From positions 1-33,815 of the IMG/VR virus record IMGVR_UViG_3300025018_000364: a stretch of 33,815 nucleotides of DNA; one strand, 5' to 3'. The notes under the pieces were generated by a model that did not search any database, was not told the origin of the DNA, and saw nothing but the letters and a program-made list of their open reading frames with translations. Below, one piece after another: positions 4,172-29,077 of the stretch. Within the stretch, counting starts at the first letter, position 1. Every line of letters starts with the position of its first letter. Source of the stretch: a virus (Duplodnaviria; Caudoviricetes). The position numbers and the translations under genes were made by a program.

Positions 4172-4816
4172 ATGACCACATACCACAAGATTCAATCAAT
4201 GTTTAAGCGAGACATGACAAAAAAAGGTCAGATGCTTATGGGAGAATGGACACTTCCAGAGTTTGAATGGCTTAAAGATAATCAATGGGTGTTCACGGAG
4301 AAGGTGGACGGTACAAACATTCGTGTTATGTGGGACGGAGAGCGTGTCTCATTCAACGGAAAAACAGACAACGCTCAGCTTCACACCGACCTTATCCGAG
4401 CACTTCAAGAGATGTTTGAGACGCTCTCTAAGCGTCAACTCTTCCAAGAAATCTTTGTCCCAGCAGAAGACGGTAAGGTAGAAGTCTGCCTTTATGGTGA
4501 AGGTTACGGGGCAGGGATTCAAAAAGGTGGTTGTTACCGTGATGACAAGAGCTTTGTACTCTTTGATGTGCTTATCGGAGGACTCTGGCTTCAGCGTAAA
4601 GACGTAGAGGATATCGCACAGAAGCTAGGTATTGATGTTGTTCCCGTGATTGGAGAAGGAACCCTTGAAGAGGGTATTGAGCTTGTCCGCAAAGGATTCA
4701 AGTCCCAGTGGGGAGACTTTGTTGCAGAGGGTATTGTGGCTCGTCCAGCAACCGAGTTGCGAACACGTCGAGGGGATAGGTTGATAACCAAGATCAAACA
4801 CCGAGATTTTAACTAA
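4172..4816 (+). CDS. ATP-dependent RNA ligase, Rnl2-like nucleotidyltransferase domain only
   Basis: Motif I EKVDGTN, III YGEGYG, IIIa FVLFDV, IV EGIVARP, V TKIK. Confidence 0.88.
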   Translation: MTTYHKIQSMFKRDMTKKGQMLMGEWTLPEFEWLKDNQWVFTEKVDGTNIRVMWDGERVSFNGKTDNAQLHTDLIRALQEMFETLSKRQLFQEIFVPAEDGKVEVCLYGEGYGAGIQKGGCYRDDKSFVLFDVLIGGLWLQRKDVEDIAQKLGIDVVPVIGEGTLEEGIELVRKGFKSQWGDFVAEGIVARPATELRTRRGDRLITKIKHRDFN

Positions 4817-5296: not shown

Positions 5297-5773
5297 ATGA
5301 AGTATTGGCTCACAACAGACACACATTTTGGACATGATAAAATGCTTGAGATTGGACGACCCACTGACTATGAACAAAGAATACTCAGAGGACTTTCAGC
5401 TCTTAAACAAGAGGATGTATTGATCCATCTTGGAGATGTGTGTATTGGGAATGATGAGTCGAACCACGCAAAGTTTATTGTTCCTCTATCTGTAAAAAAG
5501 GTTCTTGTTAAAGGGAATCACGACAAGAAAAGTGATACTTGGTATCTGCAAAACGGCTGGGATTTTGTTTGTGACTCGTTTTCTTTCAACAAGTTTGGTA
5601 AGCGACTGTTATTTACTCACGTGCCACAAGCCAAGCGACCAGACTTTGACCTGAACTTTCATGGTCATATCCACGAAGCCATACACCGTGAGTACAACCC
5701 TCAAGATCATCATCGGTGTATCTCGCTTGAAGTACAAGGCTATCAACCACAAAATCTAGAAAAACTCTTATGA
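5297..5773 (+). CDS. Calcineurin-like metallophosphoesterase
   Basis: DTHFGH, HLGDV, GNHD, FTH, HGHIH motifs. Confidence 0.92.
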   Translation: MKYWLTTDTHFGHDKMLEIGRPTDYEQRILRGLSALKQEDVLIHLGDVCIGNDESNHAKFIVPLSVKKVLVKGNHDKKSDTWYLQNGWDFVCDSFSFNKFGKRLLFTHVPQAKRPDFDLNFHGHIHEAIHREYNPQDHHRCISLEVQGYQPQNLEKLL

Positions 5774-5831: not shown

Positions 5832-5966
5832 ATGACCCAAGACGAACTCAACTCAATCAAACATCGACTTGAACAAGAAGTGAGAAAGTACCGTCGAGTA
5901 GAATGGATGGACGATGAGACATTTGTAGCCGATATTATGGCGAAAATAAATCATGAGCTTTTATGA
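5832..5966 (+). CDS. Small hypothetical protein (44 aa; not in ORF track)
   Basis: MTQDELNSIKHRLEQEVRKYRRVEWMDDETFVADIMAKINHELL; ATGA overlap with the next gene. Confidence 0.55.
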   Translation: MTQDELNSIKHRLEQEVRKYRRVEWMDDETFVADIMAKINHELL

Positions 5967-6238
5967 ACAAACTCAAACAATGGGAACGAGCAACAGATAA
6001 CCTGCGAGGGGTTTTCATTGAGAAGTATTTCTCTGATGTGCCGGTGGATTCTTACTGGGTCGGTTCTGAAATCGGTGGTGTCCTTTTTATTAACGATCAT
6101 TTCTTCAATCTCTCGGACATGGTGGACTATCTGAAGTATGATTACTCTCCAGAGGAGATGTTCCAGCGAGAGGAAGAAATGGAAAGACCTGTTGAAATAT
6201 GTATAAGAGATTGGAAGAAGTTCAAAGGTAAAGTATGA
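5963..6238 (+). CDS. Hypothetical phage protein
   Basis: 91 aa, YWVGSEIGGVLFINDHFF; coupled on both sides. Confidence 0.7.
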   Translation: MNKLKQWERATDNLRGVFIEKYFSDVPVDSYWVGSEIGGVLFINDHFFNLSDMVDYLKYDYSPEEMFQREEEMERPVEICIRDWKKFKGKV

Positions 6239-6630: not shown

Positions 6631-6873
6631 CCGACTAATCCTCGGCTCTCCAAAATAGGTTCTGATGAGTGGCAAATAGTGAGCCGTAATGCATTACACC
6701 CATGCTCAGCCATGTTGTTGCGTAACAGTAAGGAGTTGGCACTCCCTACCTCATCAGAATCTATTTTGGGGACAGACGTTGTGATGATGTGATAAACGAA
6801 GGCACCTCATCACTTTGGGTCGTTTGTCTCTAACAATTTAATAAGGGGGTTACACATAGAGTCGTAGCCCCCT
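6630..6873 (+). ncRNA. Structured 3' region or candidate ncRNA A
   Basis: Hairpin 6630-6646; 23-bp stem 6647-6669/6750-6772 (two G-U) enclosing three sub-hairpins; long hairpin 6769-6830; 10-bp hairpin 6844-6873. Confidence 0.55.
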
Positions 6874-6894: not shown

Positions 6895-6903
6895 TGCTAC
6901 AAT
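6895..6903 (+). promoter_or_regulatory. Extended -10 promoter (TG-C-TACAAT)
   Basis: Predicted start at about 6910 coincides with the first base of stem GTAAGA(6910)/TCTTAC(6967). Confidence 0.5.
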
Positions 6904-6909
6904 AAATAA

Positions 6910-7251
6910 GTAAGAACTGCACACCACCCTTATTGGGAGGTCTCCCATAGGGAGCGGATGGTCTTACCGCACGAGTAGTGGCTCAAGTAAGGTATATGCC
7001 ACGGAGAAGGAGACTCGTGACTTGATTCCTCACCTCTGTCGTCGATCAGAGGGGAGGGATGGGGTAAAAAAAATCAATACTTTCTTCGTGGGTTCCCTGC
7101 TAGGTTAACTGGGAACATCTGGATCGGCAGCCTTCGGGCTAAAGCGACTGATGATTAGCTGAAATGCTATGAAACATTTGTCTCGTGGAGTCTCCCCAGC
7201 CGATGAATAACTGGAGACCTTAGACCTAGCCCTTCGTGGAAAGTATTGATT
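6910..7251 (+). ncRNA. Structured leader or candidate ncRNA B containing the hammerhead
   Basis: Stems GTAAGA/TCTTAC, CACGAGT/ACTCGTG, CCTCTG/CAGAGG and a perfect 13-bp AATCAATACTTTC(7072-7084)/GAAAGTATTGATT(7239-7251); no convincing ORF. Confidence 0.6.
7136..7193 (+). ncRNA. Type I hammerhead ribozyme (variant); predicted cleavage after C7182
   Basis: GCGA-CUGAUGA-U-UAGC-UGAAAU-GCUA-U-GAAA-C-AUUU-GUC^UCGU: complete core, stem I GCGA/UCGU extendable through an AAA/GG loop to GGGCU/AGUCU, stem II with UGAAAU loop, minimal stem III. Confidence 0.75.
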
Positions 7252-7269
7252 CAACCCAGAGGAGGAGTA

Positions 7270-7533
7270 ATGAGAAATTCATCACTCAGAATCCCCTCTC
7301 GTGAGGGGTACTCACCTGACCGTCTGTACATCGCTTGTCCAGACTGCGGTACACCATGCCTCATTCGTCTCGCACTTCTGTGTGATAACGGAAAGATCGC
7401 CTACATCGCTGTATGTGGTGAGTGTGCAGACCACGTTTCGATCCGTCTATGGATCAACCTCTCTGCCCACGACTGGAAGTCCATGTGGCTTGCTGGGGTT
7501 CCCGTCGTTCACTATGAGGTGCAGGGTGGATAA
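7270..7533 (+). CDS. Zn-ribbon protein (87 aa)
   Basis: SD AGGAGG at 7260-7265; CPDC-x22-CGEC. Confidence 0.75.
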   Translation: MRNSSLRIPSREGYSPDRLYIACPDCGTPCLIRLALLCDNGKIAYIAVCGECADHVSIRLWINLSAHDWKSMWLAGVPVVHYEVQGG

Positions 7534-7756
7534 ACATCATATCCGTCCTCGAAGTCGCCGAGGAGGAAGACGCAACAACATCGTCAAGCTCCCCATAGGC
7601 TTCCATAGAGCACTTCACCAGGTGTTCCAAGATCTGAAGCCGGAAGAGTACGGTATCTTCCTCGATACGATCTTGGTTCCGAACACAGAGTGGACGAGTA
7701 AAGACCTCCACTACCTACGTGAGCGTATCAAACGCTTCAGCGGGAGTGAGCCATGA
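7526..7756 (+). CDS. Minimal HNH endonuclease-like protein (76 aa)
   Basis: GTG start after GAGGTG; DKHHIRPRSRRGG...NIVKL...FHRALH is an HNH motif. The ORF-track start at 7301 is over-extended. Confidence 0.75.
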   Translation: MDKHHIRPRSRRGGRRNNIVKLPIGFHRALHQVFQDLKPEEYGIFLDTILVPNTEWTSKDLHYLRERIKRFSGSEP

Positions 7757-7842
7757 GTGCTGTCATCTTCTGGTCAGTTGTCATCTTGGCAATCCTCTTG
7801 TCAGTCTTCAGGAGGGATCATGCGCAAGCTCAAAGGGCATGA
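7753..7842 (+). CDS. 29-aa single-helix membrane peptide (not in ORF track)
   Basis: MSAVIFWSVVILAILLSVFRRDHAQAQRA; GGGAG upstream; ATGA overlap with the HNH stop. Confidence 0.6.
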   Translation: MSAVIFWSVVILAILLSVFRRDHAQAQRA

Positions 7843-8023
7843 GGTCGTCTGCCCGTGCTGCAAGAAGATCACCGGCATGAGCCGAGGTGCCCACACAAGT
7901 GCCTCCGAGAGCGGTGTCTTCATCATCTGTTGGTGCGACCACTGTGGAGAGAAGTTGGTCGTCAAGACGATGGACAAGAACTGTCGCCCAATCGACAACC
8001 TCGTCATGTTTCCTAAACGTTAG
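7820..8023 (+). CDS. Zn-ribbon protein (67 aa)
   Basis: SD AGGAGG at 7810-7815; CPCC-x24-CDHC. Confidence 0.75.
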   Translation: MRKLKGHEVVCPCCKKITGMSRGAHTSASESGVFIICWCDHCGEKLVVKTMDKNCRPIDNLVMFPKR

Positions 8024-8030
8024 ATAGGTC

Positions 8031-8057
8031 TGCCAGTACCTGGAACTGGCATTTTCT
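8031..8057 (+). terminator. Intrinsic terminator-like hairpin closing the SD-led operon
   Basis: TGCCAGT/ACTGGCA followed by TTTTCT. Confidence 0.6.
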
Positions 8058-8075
8058 AACAAAGTAAAATATACT

Positions 8076-8219
8076 ATGTTCAAACAAGAAAAGCCTTTTG
8101 AGGAGAGAGTGAAGAAGTTTCAAGAGCAAGTGCTAAAGCTCGCAAAAAAATACGGCGTTGATATGTTTCCAACAATTCAAATCGCAGATAGCAAAAAGAA
8201 AGAAGAGCCTAGTAAATAG
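8076..8219 (+). CDS. Small charged protein (47 aa; not in ORF track)
   Basis: MFKQEKPFEERVKKFQEQVLKLAKKYGVDMFPTIQIADSKKKEEPSK. Confidence 0.6.
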   Translation: MFKQEKPFEERVKKFQEQVLKLAKKYGVDMFPTIQIADSKKKEEPSK

Positions 8220-8228
8220 GCTCTTTTT
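8203..8228. terminator. Probable bidirectional terminator where the two arms converge
   Basis: AAGAGCCTA/TAGGCTCTT stem, A-rich on the left and T-run on the right. Confidence 0.7.
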
Positions 8229-8336
8229 AGTTTCCAAGTCTTCCCTCCCACCATTAAAGGTGGAAGTTTCCAAGAGTATGACAGCAAGGAGCGACCCCGT
8301 TCAAGACGGGAGGGAAGAGCCGAGGTTACTCGGCAA

Positions 8337-24459: not shown

Positions 24460-24906
24460 TTACTTGTTGTTTTTATCTACAAACATTTGTGCCAATGCTT
24501 TGTAATTGTCGCCATGCTTTGATCGACTGTACGTTCTGATTTCTTCCTTGTAGTTCTTGTGGCTTTTGTACACCACACAAGCGTCTGCACTTTCTTTGAA
24601 GTAATACTCCCAGATTGACTTACGGAGGTTTGCTAGGACTTGACCCGGTACGATAACCCCACTGGGTGTCTGCACATCTCCCATGTCATTGACAGTCATT
24701 TCAGCGAGTACCACCTCAACAGGCTTTTCGTTCACTTTAGAGACTGACTCAGCAATCTTTTGGATCTCTTCTTCTGTATAGGTTGGAGGTTCAATCACAG
24801 CCTCCGAAGGGATCAGAGCCTCTAGCTTGGCTATGCCCCACCGTTTGTCGTACTCAATCCCGAGCGAGTCGAGTTTGTCGTACAATGGTTGTTTATCCTG
24901 TTTCAT
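24460..24906 (-). CDS. Hypothetical head-module protein
   Basis: N-terminal LDSLGIEYDKRWGIAKLEALI small helical motif. Confidence 0.75.
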   Translation of the reverse strand: MKQDKQPLYDKLDSLGIEYDKRWGIAKLEALIPSEAVIEPPTYTEEEIQKIAESVSKVNEKPVEVVLAEMTVNDMGDVQTPSGVIVPGQVLANLRKSIWEYYFKESADACVVYKSHKNYKEEIRTYSRSKHGDNYKALAQMFVDKNNK

Positions 24907-25211
24907 AGTTTTTTGACATATTCTTCTACGTTACGAATTGCTTGTCTGGCGATATCAAACTGCTCAACAAACCACACCCAACAACTTCGTTCAGTCATCA
25001 TTCCTTTACGCTCCTCCATTGTCATATCTACATTATACAACAGTTTCTCGTTTATGGCTTGAATACGGCTATCTAGTTCCTCTAAGAGGATTTTGACCCC
25101 GTCATGTTCTTGTAAGTCGATAACCATTTCAGCACGTTTGGCTGTCTTTTCCATGTTCGTAAGACGCATGGCTTTCTCTGGGTGTTCTTCTTTTTGTTGT
25201 GATAAGTCCAT
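24903..25211 (-). CDS. Hypothetical head-module protein
   Basis: 102-aa helical ORF in the usual post-portal position. Confidence 0.75.
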   Translation of the reverse strand: MDLSQQKEEHPEKAMRLTNMEKTAKRAEMVIDLQEHDGVKILLEELDSRIQAINEKLLYNVDMTMEERKGMMTERSCWVWFVEQFDIARQAIRNVEEYVKKL

Positions 25212-25222
25212 ACAAGTGTGAG

Positions 25223-25549
25223 TTATTGTTGTTTAACAAAGGAAAACATTAAGGCAAAAGGTTTTTTATAGTACGGGATACCCCAAAGTCTATTTTGTAG
25301 GGATGTTTCTTTCTGAAAATAGCAAGAGGATGGGGAACCGTTTTGTTGAATGATAACCATTGTCTCTAGTTGTTTTCTCTCTTTGAATGTCCACCAATAC
25401 AATTTGTTGATCGGATTCTGTCGATTGAAAAAGAATTTGCCTATTGGACGCAGTATCTTTTTGCCGATTGTTCTTGGGTGTCCGCAACCTATATTAAACC
25501 ACCAACATGGATATTGTATGCTTTTATTTATTTGTTGTATCAAATCCAT
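25223..25549 (-). CDS. AT-rich inserted (moron-like) gene
   Basis: W/F/K-rich 108 aa; visibly more AT-rich than flanks. Confidence 0.5.
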   Translation of the reverse strand: MDLIQQINKSIQYPCWWFNIGCGHPRTIGKKILRPIGKFFFNRQNPINKLYWWTFKERKQLETMVIIQQNGSPSSCYFQKETSLQNRLWGIPYYKKPFALMFSFVKQQ

Positions 25550-25550
25550 A

Positions 25551-27587
25551 TTAAGACATGATTCCACTTAGAGCTTGGGAGGTGCTAGCAGTAGCTTGTG
25601 GTGTGCCTGACCCTTCAAAAGGCTTGGCTGATGATTCCTGCTGTTTCTGTCTTGAAACAGGCTGACCCTCGATAGACTGGTCTGCTTTCGCTTGCTCCTG
25701 CACGCCGAGCTGTTGAAGTCCTTGCTGTGTCTGCATTTTTGTAATGTTGCGAGCCATGTTCTGCAAGACAATCTTCTGATGAGCTTGGACGTATGCAAGC
25801 AATTTGTCTGACATTTCTTTCTTCTTCTTGTCCACTCCTTTTTCACGCCCCTTACTGTCGAGCTTGATGTAGTTCAGGTTCTCTCGAACGTAGTCAAGAA
25901 TACGTTGCATATACATCTGGTCTGCGTCCATATTGAGCACGAGAGGTCGTCCGAGGATCACGTCTTGGATAGCTTGGTCTGCTTCTTCCATAAGTTCTTG
26001 GTTAGCTTGGTTCTGTGAATCAAGAGCGTAGGTGATTTCATCTTCGTCAAACCCTGCGATACGCATTCGTTCCTTAATCATCCACACAGGGTTCAACTTG
26101 TCTGGGTAGGCACCTGACAACTCTTGCATAGCCTTGCTCTTACGTTCCTTGTCCACTTCGGTTTCTTCGGCTTCTTTTGAGCCGCCGTGAACAATCACGT
26201 CATCCACGTCATCAACATCTTTCAGCTCAAAGCGTTCAAGCTGTTGGAGTTTGATTCCTGACTTGCCCAACATCTCGACTTGCTTGTCTTCAGTTAGGTG
26301 TTCCTTGAGTCCCCAAAAATAGCGGTAGCCTTTGTGTGAATAAGACTCCGAGTATTCCTTGTTGATGATTCCGATTCGATCTGCTTCCTGCTGTAACTGT
26401 CCGTAGAACACACCTACCTTAGCGTCTGATTCACGGATAGACGGGTCTGATACACCTGATGAGGACTGCATGAGGTTGTCGAGGTAATTCACCACGTCAA
26501 ACGTCATGGAAGCTTGTGGGGTTTCAATCGTTACCATGTTTGGATCACGTCCTGGGTTGCGTAGTACGACGTTGTCTGGGATGTAGTCCTGCAACTCGTT
26601 GATGTTCACCAAAGAACCAGAATCAACCATTCGCATTGGTCGTGTCTGTCGCTTAGCGTTCTCTAAGGCGTTGTTGAGTAGGAATCGTGCCGCTTCTGCT
26701 AATGGGAAGAAGTCATCACCCGGACTCTTTGACCAGAATGAATACTCGTCATAGTGCGTTGCCCATGAGATATACGGAGTCTTGCCGTTCTCGAACACGT
26801 CCTCCAGCTTCTCAGCTCGTACCCATAGACGAGTCTTTGGATCGAACAGAAGATAGAACCACTCGTCTTCATGACGCATGATCCACTCGGTCATGTTCAC
26901 TCCTTTCTGTCCAACAAAGCTTGTACGCTCTACGTCCATGCCTGTTGCTTTCAATCGGTCGTAACGGTACTGCTTCACGTCTTGATCTCCGTCTGCTTGT
27001 GTCCCCTCAACACTTAGAAGCTGTGCGACGTTTTGCTTGTCGTAAAAACCTGCCTTAGCGAGTGCTTGCAGAGAGGTTGTCGTTTTGAAAATATCTGTCT
27101 CTCCGTGATAGTTCCCGTCCTCTAACCATCCACGAGTAGGATCAGCGACGAACGCATAGGGATCTACTACGTCGTAATGGCTTTTATATTTATTGCCGAC
27201 GCTGGAGGCGTACACCTTAGCGATTCCACGTCCTGAAAGAAGGGCGAGCTTCTTCTCGGATCGGTCTTTGCGGTTCCAACCAGCTCGGGAGGAAGACATC
27301 TCCTGTACCCACGAGGCTTTGACCTTCTCGGACAATGTCTTGCGGTTAGGGATAGCAAACTCTAGGTCTGGTGGGTTGTCGATCTTAGACAACAAAAGCT
27401 CGATCTGTCGAGCGTAAAAGGAAAATGGAATGTTGAAAATATCACCGTCTACCTGAATGGTTTTGTTGTTGTAGAGATCGTTCATCTCAACAAGCGTATC
27501 CATTCGGTTCTTTTTGGCTTGTAAGCCTTCTTCAAGTTGTTGCGTCGCCGTTCGCACCAGCTCGTCTGCTAGTGTGCGAGATAACAT
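25551..27587 (-). CDS. Portal protein
   Basis: 678 aa after the terminase; LLSGRGIAKV, VVDPYAFVADP; Q-rich C-terminus as in podovirus portals. Confidence 0.85.
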   Translation of the reverse strand: MLSRTLADELVRTATQQLEEGLQAKKNRMDTLVEMNDLYNNKTIQVDGDIFNIPFSFYARQIELLLSKIDNPPDLEFAIPNRKTLSEKVKASWVQEMSSSRAGWNRKDRSEKKLALLSGRGIAKVYASSVGNKYKSHYDVVDPYAFVADPTRGWLEDGNYHGETDIFKTTTSLQALAKAGFYDKQNVAQLLSVEGTQADGDQDVKQYRYDRLKATGMDVERTSFVGQKGVNMTEWIMRHEDEWFYLLFDPKTRLWVRAEKLEDVFENGKTPYISWATHYDEYSFWSKSPGDDFFPLAEAARFLLNNALENAKRQTRPMRMVDSGSLVNINELQDYIPDNVVLRNPGRDPNMVTIETPQASMTFDVVNYLDNLMQSSSGVSDPSIRESDAKVGVFYGQLQQEADRIGIINKEYSESYSHKGYRYFWGLKEHLTEDKQVEMLGKSGIKLQQLERFELKDVDDVDDVIVHGGSKEAEETEVDKERKSKAMQELSGAYPDKLNPVWMIKERMRIAGFDEDEITYALDSQNQANQELMEEADQAIQDVILGRPLVLNMDADQMYMQRILDYVRENLNYIKLDSKGREKGVDKKKKEMSDKLLAYVQAHQKIVLQNMARNITKMQTQQGLQQLGVQEQAKADQSIEGQPVSRQKQQESSAKPFEGSGTPQATASTSQALSGIMS

Positions 27588-27591
27588 AGTT

Positions 27592-27783
27592 TTATAATTT
27601 GTCTTCAGTAAGACGAGTGGCTAGTATGCACGAAAAGATACACACTAGAACAAAAATGTTGAAAAGTAATGATTTTACAAAGTTAGTTTTGAAAATATAA
27701 ATCTCCAAAGCAACAACTACCAAAACAAGAAAGGTGATTATTAAGTAGGAGGACAGTCTCATATGTTTCATATTTCTAACCAT
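27592..27783 (-). CDS. AT-rich two-TM membrane protein (moron-like)
   Basis: Two hydrophobic stretches; sits between terminase and portal. Confidence 0.55.
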   Translation of the reverse strand: MVRNMKHMRLSSYLIITFLVLVVVALEIYIFKTNFVKSLLFNIFVLVCIFSCILATRLTEDKL

Positions 27784-29077
27784 ACTTCGTAATTTTAACG
27801 TGTTCTTTTGATCGTTTTTGAATGCTTGCTGTCTTGTAGTGATTGTGCCCTACGGCTAGATAACGGAAAGCGTCTGACCCATGCGAACTCCAGTCGTGAT
27901 CTGGTCTAGTCTTGTACACCTTGCGTTTCTCATCGTATTCCTTGTGATAATTAGCAAGTGTCTCTAATCCACGCTTACATTTTACCACATCGAACCAACA
28001 ACGAGAAAGCAAAATACGTGTGGCTTGAATCCCGTCGTCTACGGATAGGTTAGGAACTATCAGGATTGGATTAAGTCCTAGCTTCTGTGCCGTCTCCTTC
28101 CGTGATACTCCGGTTGATAATTCTCGTGCTTCCCCGTCGTGTGGCCAGTAGTGATCCCCGTACACGTACCCCTTTGTTTGGAGATGTGCGACGTAATACG
28201 GCACTCCTTCACCTTCTGATTCTAGATAGTCAATAACGTGTATCTCGTTGCCGATTGACTGTGTGAACCAGATCGCCATAGCGTCGCCCACTCCCAAATC
28301 CCACCATGTATCAACGGGAACGCTTGAATCATACGGTACTTCCTTGATTCTGTTCTTTTCCTTAGCTTCTTGGAGTAACTGTCCATAGTAACTTCCTTGG
28401 ACACTTGCCTCGAAGGAACAGAAGTATTCCTGTTGAAAAATAGCGTCGTCTCCGTTCTTGGCGATGATCTCTTTCTTCTCTTGGTCTAAAACGCTCTGGG
28501 GGATCGCTTTGGTATCGTCTGCGGTTAGAACTTGCGTAAACCAATTAGGATCGCTCTCAGCGAAGCGTAGGAGGTCGTAGGCGTGGTTCTTGCCACGAGG
28601 AGTGAAGTTAAATCCTGCCCATCCACCGTTCTCAGCAAGAATCGGTCTAATGAAGTCCCATGCTCTTGGGTCTTGTAGGGAAAACTCTGAGAAGATCACA
28701 CCCATTGGGTTTGTACCGACGATTGAGTCGATATTATCTGACCCTACGATCTGAAAGGTTGAACCGTTGACCATCTCAATAAACATCTCTGTCTCGTTGG
28801 TTTTGGTTCGCAATTCCTTAGGTAAGTGATCCATGAACCTAAACCCCTCCTTGTCTGCGCCATTCCAGATAATCTTCTTGCCTTGCGTGTAGGTCGGGAA
28901 GACGTAGAAGTAAGCCCCAACACGTTCAAACATCTTCTTGGTGATGATGTTGATCGCCGTCTTATCCTTGCCTGCTCGTCTGTGCCACACCCAAATAAAA
29001 CGATTGATCCCATTGTCTACTGCCTTGAGTAGTGGGAGCTGGTAGTCCCGTGGTTCGTAGTTAAACGGAATCCTCAT
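27776..29077 (-). CDS. terL: Terminase large subunit
   Basis: PRDYQ, Walker A HRRAGKD, Walker B VIFSE, FTPRGKN, nuclease WDLGVGD, SHGSDAFRY. Confidence 0.96.
   Translation of the reverse strand: MRIPFNYEPRDYQLPLLKAVDNGINRFIWVWHRRAGKDKTAINIITKKMFERVGAYFYVFPTYTQGKKIIWNGADKEGFRFMDHLPKELRTKTNETEMFIEMVNGSTFQIVGSDNIDSIVGTNPMGVIFSEFSLQDPRAWDFIRPILAENGGWAGFNFTPRGKNHAYDLLRFAESDPNWFTQVLTADDTKAIPQSVLDQEKKEIIAKNGDDAIFQQEYFCSFEASVQGSYYGQLLQEAKEKNRIKEVPYDSSVPVDTWWDLGVGDAMAIWFTQSIGNEIHVIDYLESEGEGVPYYVAHLQTKGYVYGDHYWPHDGEARELSTGVSRKETAQKLGLNPILIVPNLSVDDGIQATRILLSRCWFDVVKCKRGLETLANYHKEYDEKRKVYKTRPDHDWSSHGSDAFRYLAVGHNHYKTASIQKRSKEHVKITKYG

Follow-up and report, generated by a model that had tools for sequence, protein, structure and literature searches.

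A short operon in a phage genome, with a hammerhead ribozyme folded into its leader, raises the question of what kind of unit this is, and whether the ribozyme belongs to its workings. The window, that is, the whole stretch of DNA analysed (33,815 bases), is an entire virus record, 98% complete, with Pfam and PHROGs matches to terminase, capsid-like, Erf, RusA, RNA ligase, phosphoesterase and C1 peptidase genes. The unit (6895-8057) lies where the + strand early arm and the - strand late arm converge. A first-pass annotation had described it as a candidate new system in which a ribozyme regulates a toxin, exclusion or anti-defence cassette, or in which a selfish element's RNA partners a small HNH protein. 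Our analysis indicates that the operon is a real, self-contained unit and that it forms a layer separate from the hammerhead. Its features are as follows.

6895-6903, + strand: extended -10 promoter-like motif TGCTACAAT (predicted; the sole + strand match in the window)
6906-7068, + strand: 5' structured leader of three stem-loops (z -2.7), common to the relative L004
7069-7254, + strand: insert of ~186 nt, its ends closed by a perfect 13-bp inverted repeat (7072-7084 / 7239-7251; z -3.8)
7115-7218, + strand: H-type pseudoknot around the hammerhead (helix A, 7123-7128 / 7199-7204; helix B, 7190-7195 / 7213-7218)
7144-7186, + strand: type I hammerhead (core CTGATGA 7148-7154, GAAA 7171-7174, GTC 7180-7182)
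7270-7533, + strand: ORF1, 87 aa, from an unannotated family; zinc-ribbon-like, with four cysteines (Shine-Dalgarno site, SD, -11.4 kcal/mol)
7526-7756, + strand: ORF2, 76 aa, GTG start, mini-HNH-like (SD -8.8)
7753-7842, + strand: ORF3, 29 aa, predicted to form a single membrane helix (SD -6.9)
7820-8023, + strand: ORF4, 67 aa, two CxxC motifs (SD -9.7)
8031-8057, + strand: intrinsic-terminator-like hairpin (predicted)

Operon anatomy and the shared genomic address

The layout given in the first-pass annotation was borne out. The extended -10 motif is present at 6895, and a like motif occupies the same place in the relatives L004 and L005; genome-wide the motif is not enriched (4 seen, 5.8 +/- 2.3 expected), and a sigma-70 scanner did not include the site at 6895 in its list. 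The leader, described as about 340 nt of stacked stems, folds in two halves, 6906-7068 (z -2.7) and 7068-7255 (z -3.8), and its 5' part has 83% identity to L004 over 180 nt. The four small ORFs overlap serially, as the coordinates above indicate, each is preceded by an SD, and the terminator placed at 8031 corresponds to a hairpin at 8031-8051. The cassette had also been called more GC-rich than its neighbours, and the GC content of the ORF block is indeed 0.529 versus 0.450 for the genome, a value reached by 2 of 662 sliding windows. Cysteine makes up 5.0% of residues in the cassette proteins versus 0.7% in the backbone.

What the annotation had missed is that the remaining genome is without SD sites and that the hammerhead segment is an insert. 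The cassette SDs range from -6.9 to -11.4 kcal/mol. With gene starts picked by the analyst and a cut-off of -6.5 kcal/mol chosen after the first SD results had been seen, an SD of that strength or stronger precedes 4/4 cassette ORFs versus 3/46 backbone genes (Fisher p 1.5e-4); a threshold-free comparison gave the same contrast (Mann-Whitney p 0.001). Among the 24 long ORFs of the window, the fraction with an SD is 0.04. Canonical SDs are found in most phages and are missing from some, according to PMC7162821.

SD-led, cysteine-rich ORF blocks stand at the same address in L004, L005, L007 and G003. All four relatives that cover the address carry a block (4/4), with variable gene content, and no empty site was seen. 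L004, a close relative of the window, has the promoter, the 5' leader and ORF1-3, while L005 and L006 represent one more distant phage. Leaving out of the SD counts two misframed ORFs (L005 5648 and G003 27188), L005 has 6 correctly framed ORFs with SDs of -6.4 to -15.0, L007 has SDs of -7.2 or stronger in 4/4 ORFs, and in G003 5/6 correctly framed block ORFs have SDs of -7.6 or stronger; the fraction among 25 long ORFs of G003 is 0.08. In both L005 and L007, the HNH gene is part of a longer series of ORFs with SDs, coding for membrane and multi-cysteine proteins, and the series stops at the convergent lysis genes. G003 is a complete phage whose terminase is 74% identical to that of the window. 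Its block is a GC-richer run of CxxC ORFs with an ORF1 homologue (26856-27191; hhalign 96%, E 4.5e-9) and no HNH, and, judged by eye, a leader and a phosphoesterase-like ORF with an SD appear to begin the unit. Two complete or near-complete SD-less terminase relatives (G015 and G019) yielded no such cluster with our cluster filter, which under-calls, as it failed to pick up the G003 block and some of the L005 block. Amid early genes that lack SDs, G008 has a lone CxxC ORF (5944-6183) with an SD and a terminator-like hairpin, which looks like the cassette reduced to one gene.

Other genes vary around this address. Between an upstream terminator-like hairpin and the cassette promoter, L004 has an SD-less ORF of 201 aa (1302-1907) that by eye resembles a DNA methyltransferase; the slot is empty in the window. 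The phosphoesterase-like gene of G003 (24579-26398; L047 7579-9398), which is SD-led, is split by an apparent group I intron that holds an SD-less ORF and gave no Rfam match.

Morons, as known from HK97 and HK022, are autonomous promoter-gene-terminator accessories of phages. The cassette has its own promoter, its own terminator and an atypical composition, the traits by which morons are recognised, and like them it is self-contained with exchangeable genes. Unlike them, it has a GC content above that of the backbone, an address fixed across the family and an initiation signal absent elsewhere in its genome. The operon is a new variation on the moron, set apart by a translation signal that is alien to the surrounding genome. 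It could instead be an ordinary moron acquired from a phage whose host uses SDs and has a higher GC content; in that case SD and GC would be donor relics without a current role. The promoter-ORFs-terminator layout, the high GC and the variable content would all fit such an origin, and the phages sharing the terminase do include GC-rich, SD-using ones (G014, G011 and G020). However, the SD persists before different, diverged ORFs in four lineages (ORF1 27-49% identity; pS 0.46-0.84), a pattern not expected of decay, and G003 places an SD before the large phosphoesterase-like ORF of the same unit. We regard a relic origin as rather unlikely. The proposal of a selfish element is also unlikely, since even diverged phages keep the block at a single place in the genome.

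Host and translation route

The host of the window phage is probably a member of the Patescibacteria. This assignment is drawn from the SD-less backbone, from the aquifer and groundwater runs (X2 and X3) that cover the locus, from one distant HNH homologue named from a Patescibacteria genome, and from the lack of enrichment of the Bacteroidota -7 box (23 seen in the window, 24.4 +/- 5.0 expected). Searches of species genomes with ORF1 and ORF2 yielded no prophage or spacer link to a host. Because PMC9297842 gives the anti-SD as present in 48% of Parcubacteria, the SDs of the operon could be read either by ribosomes of the host itself or by those of a partner cell.

The explanation that we favour, with a confidence evenly balanced between belief and doubt, is that of a phage-family accessory operon, SD-led in an SD-less phage, read in the infected cell and exchangeable, in which the hammerhead insert would likely only trim and protect the message. 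A separate translation route in the host is most likely the explanation for an operon that alone uses SDs. In such a scheme, the host sigma-70 polymerase would produce one transcript of about 6906-8057, and a single hammerhead cut after C7182 would leave a 3' mRNA piece that starts with a 5'-OH and whose 87-nt leader is held together by the pseudoknot and the outer stems. Such ends would be expected to resist decay. Host ribosomes that retain the anti-SD would initiate on the ORFs through pairing with the SDs and through translational coupling, a path that the backbone genes leave unused. The products would then act on the infected cell, through nucleic-acid cutting or binding and at the membrane, and would be accessories for takeover or counter-defence that phages exchange. 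A trimming role would match the mRNA processing proposed for prophage hammerheads, which flank genes of non-constant identity (PMC3088659). The favoured explanation does not account for the confinement of the SD to one operon or for a GC content that stays high.

If the host belongs to the SD-less Patescibacteria, the operon mRNA could be made in the epibiont and translated by ribosomes of the epibiont's own bacterial or archaeal host. The virus would then send effector mRNA, coding for zinc micro-proteins, a mini-nuclease and a membrane peptide, across the symbiosis, stabilised by structured ends and an optional ribozyme. A sharp contrast in SD, GC and cysteine that recurs in four phage lineages, each time within a single transcription unit, is what such a message might look like, as is the union of a host-type promoter with a foreign-type initiation signal, and about half of Parcubacteria are missing the anti-SD (PMC9297842). 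Yet the host is inferred, its ribosomes may well possess the anti-SD, SD-like sites precede a few backbone genes, and none of the papers listed by a literature search mentions mRNA transfer or the host ribosome. Both the translation by a partner's ribosomes and the export of effector mRNA seem unlikely to us. Our literature search, mostly of open-access main texts, yielded no description of the operon or of SD-led islands in CPR phages, and the statement that no described module has this combination of parts likewise held in our searches.

With either route, a testable question arises from the finding that, in four lineages, one compact phage transcript has an initiation code unlike that used elsewhere in the genome. 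Which ribosome reads the cassette bears on the ways in which Patescibacteria and their phages influence partner cells, and also on the use of SDs by SD-less bacteria.

The leader insert and its hammerhead RNA

In L004, the 5' leader is joined directly to the ORF1 SD, and the ~186 nt that include the hammerhead are missing; L008 ends on the same empty junction. Although the event is unrooted, we prefer an insertion in the window to a loss in its relatives because the remaining leaders are also without the segment. An assembly artefact was ruled out by a contig from run X3 that spans 6951-7270 with zero differences.

A hammerhead in the leader, as the first-pass annotation had called it, is supported by a full core and by covariation in homologues. 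The elements CUGANGA, GAAA and a NUH triplet occur in order, with the predicted cut after C7182, and three stems can be drawn: stem I of 4 bp (open), stem II of 4 bp following a U-U at 10.1-11.1, and stem III of 2 bp. The U-U is also seen in 4/24 homologues, and section 8 of PMC3088659 describes both a U10.1-U11.1 mismatch and a weak stem III in natural hammerheads. The homologues come from 24 other viral contigs, several of them near-duplicates, found with a pattern of the core plus a three-base stem I. In most of them stems II and III vary in sequence with pairing kept; part of stems I and III is fixed by the search pattern, which imposes the invariance seen there. Both flanking helices reach >=6 bp in 21/24 homologues versus 0.5% of shuffled flanks. 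In a set made of the window and 8/24 homologues chosen for window-like flanks, with the structure drawn from the window, 6/6 pairs of helix A and 5/6 of helix B change on both sides, and 99.4% of cells pair, a level reached by 0/500 shuffles. By this comparison the hammerhead is genuine, and self-cleavage is predicted.

Searches with Rfam gave nothing at gathering score on the window and five related loci; on the window with E up to 10 there were six chance-level matches, none a hammerhead, and the hammerhead models had no match at gathering score on the 17 of 24 homologue loci tested. Since some of the unmatched loci have textbook stems, the Rfam models appear to miss the family. ARAGORN found nothing on six loci. 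Our literature search, mostly of open-access main texts, found no description of this RNA family, of which figures S4-S8 of Perreault may hold members. Like the prophage type I hammerheads of Perreault et al. 2011 (PMC3088659), the window ribozyme has a full core, type I topology, a weak stem III, a U10.1-U11.1 mismatch and a position before variable phage genes. Unlike those, for which pseudoknots linking stems I and II are described, it sits inside a larger H-type pseudoknot formed from both flanks. It is a new member of an established class, set in a frame that has not been catalogued, and a hammerhead-in-pseudoknot family that is supported by covariation and missed by Rfam is of interest in its own right. 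Readings of the pseudoknot as twister, pistol or HDV-like were dropped on comparison by eye with the layouts of those classes. Of the 17 homologue loci tested, 4 hold tRNAs and in 3 these adjoin the ribozyme; in L099, L109 and L111, members of the family adjoin tRNA genes or clusters.

Is the ribozyme, then, an integral regulator of the operon, or the leader an RNA guide for the mini-HNH? In favour of such a module are a genuine hammerhead 87 nt 5' of ORF1, a 5' strand of helix B that could pair with the SD, the company of HNH-like and membrane ORFs, and a weak HNH match of ORF2 to an IscB chain (E 0.018). However, L004 has ORF1-3 without the insert, no hammerhead core was found in the leaders of L004, L005 or G003 (L007 begins inside its cassette), and leaders differ wholly between lineages, so that they are not conserved with the HNH; G003 has ORF1 and no HNH at all. 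A family profile search of 28 related records, many of them fragments, matched only the window, and the 24 family contigs have other ORFs downstream: those within 700 nt 3' of the ribozymes are by inspection unrelated to the cassette, and some members adjoin tRNAs. Nor did folding reveal an SD switch upon cleavage. The SD is predicted to be mostly paired whether or not the 5' part is present, in pseudoknot-free folds whose 3' piece began at 7181, two bases before the predicted cut.

Because the closest relative is without the insert and searches of the other leaders gave no hammerhead, a ribozyme-regulated or RNA-guided system is unsupported. As a conserved system this model is largely refuted, and we consider it very unlikely. 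The self-contained unit, the real hammerhead, the HNH-like ORF2 and the zinc-ribbon-like ORFs of the original interpretation stand; the ribozyme as integral regulator or RNA partner does not. By the comparative data the hammerhead is incidental here. It is an optional insert, drawn from an RNA family widespread among phages, and not a switch dedicated to the operon; in the favoured accessory-operon reading it likely just trims the mRNA. The window and L004 form a natural with/without pair for the effect of a phage ribozyme on its mRNA.

Two known systems offer partial likenesses. IscB/OMEGA (HEARO) systems are RNA-guided nucleases with a structured RNA upstream of an HNH-containing ORF. The operon resembles them in having a structured RNA 5' of an HNH-like ORF, and in the weak match to IscB noted above. 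In contrast to them, it gave no Rfam match, its leader is not conserved with the HNH, and neither a RuvC domain nor a cognate RNA was found; at 76 aa, ORF2 has no room for a RuvC or bridge helix. In type I toxin-antitoxin loci, a short membrane peptide lies 3' of a structured leader, as does ORF3; unlike those peptides, ORF3 comes third in a series of coupled ORFs and has no Pfam or PADLOC match.

Several RNA-related elements lie nearby. An RNA ligase gene (4172-4816) and a calcineurin-like phosphoesterase gene (5297-5773) 5' of the ribozyme could form an RNA-repair pair, and both genes, together with the insert, are missing from the matching stretch of L008/L004. Distinct from the operon is a + strand tRNA-like element at 6647-6772, with a 23-bp closing stem (z -6.7), that gave no ARAGORN call and no Rfam call. 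Similar elements occur in L004 (952-1119) and L005 (5511-5632), with ends resembling a D-arm and a T-arm and closing stems of ~20 bp. Between the window and L004 the ends are conserved and the interior differs (z -6.7 and -5.7), and a third variant appears as loose ends in run X2.

The four proteins

Searches of Pfam and PHROGs returned zero matches for all four ORFs, and PADLOC profiles matched 0/8 proteins at E 0.05. The functions suggested below follow from motifs and weak family matches.

ORF1 has 43 matches among 50%-identity representatives. Its family keeps 4 invariant cysteines in 40 aligned sequences, an alignment from which four long multi-cysteine proteins and four weak matches were left out. 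The predicted model has a pLDDT of 84.5 and gave no fold match at E 0.001. Between the window and L004, pN/pS is 0.31/0.60. No relative of ORF1 was found in species genomes, and among 24 related records, most of them fragments short of the locus, only the window and G003 had one.

ORF2, for which an alternative ATG start at 7514 would give 80 aa, has 73 matches and belongs to a family of 76-87 aa (lengths of 41-147 were searched). In 44 family sequences, H8, H9, H31 and H35 are invariant and N22 is nearly so, which supplies the catalytic His, the structural Asn and the metal-binding His pair expected of an HNH, and the model (pLDDT 92.4) has the order strand-strand-helix. PF01844 was matched weakly by 12/44 family members (best E 0.0026), while ORF2 itself has no Pfam match. 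Fold comparisons gave a best E of 0.0099 in BFVD (none at E 0.001), where most of the top rows are HNH proteins, and a best Z of 3.3 in VIA. Against L004, pN/pS is 0.09/0.46, so that pN is below pS for ORF2 as for ORF1. Like the small free-standing phage HNH proteins of PF01844, ORF2 has an HH..N..H...H pattern. It differs from them in its length of 76 aa, its lack of CxxC, a three-helix C-terminal part and the absence of an above-cut-off match, and also in its position, which is not beside the terminase but usually after a separate four-cysteine ORF. ORF2 is likely a mini-nuclease. The uncharacterised uncultured marine virus proteins that head the BFVD rows for both ORF2 and ORF1, below significance, have neighbouring accession prefixes.

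Relatives of ORF2 were absent from the viral contigs, GenBank phages and species genomes searched, and among 36 related records, most of them fragments short of the locus, the HNH was found in the window alone. The search did reach four metagenome contigs besides the window's own, namely L004, L005, L006 and L007. Five ORF1 homologues lie on contigs of the same size as that of an ORF2 homologue (1282, 1742, 6572, 1186 and 1550), which is indirect evidence that the two are linked on shared contigs. ORF1 and ORF2 represent two unannotated micro-protein families.

The membrane helix of ORF3 has a mean hydropathy of 2.6 over 19 aa, and L004 has a similar peptide. No homologue of ORF4 was found, the L004 contig ending before it. 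A single viral match to ORF4 (L002/G002) was set aside as chance, amounting to 15 aa in an unrelated phage.

The sole taxonomically named HNH homologue, a distant one, comes from a Patescibacteria genome; this, the conserved extended -10 promoter and the unenriched -7 box make it hardly credible that a Bacteroidota-like host hides its anti-SD and reads the operon with a remodelled ribosome pool (for example, without bS21), the SD serving as a stage or stress gate, even though such a gate would suit the SD-less backbone and PMC9976891 describes sequestration of the anti-SD by bS21, bS18 and bS6 and a regulatory function gained by bS21-less ribosomes.

Downstream of the four ORFs, a promoter-like site overlaps the cassette terminator in the window. 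A 22-bp imperfect inverted repeat (8239-8318) and a hairpin (8195-8233) both lie between the convergent arms, and beyond the cassette terminator comes a short lysine-rich ORF without an SD, both in the window (8076-8219) and in G003 (27714-27893).
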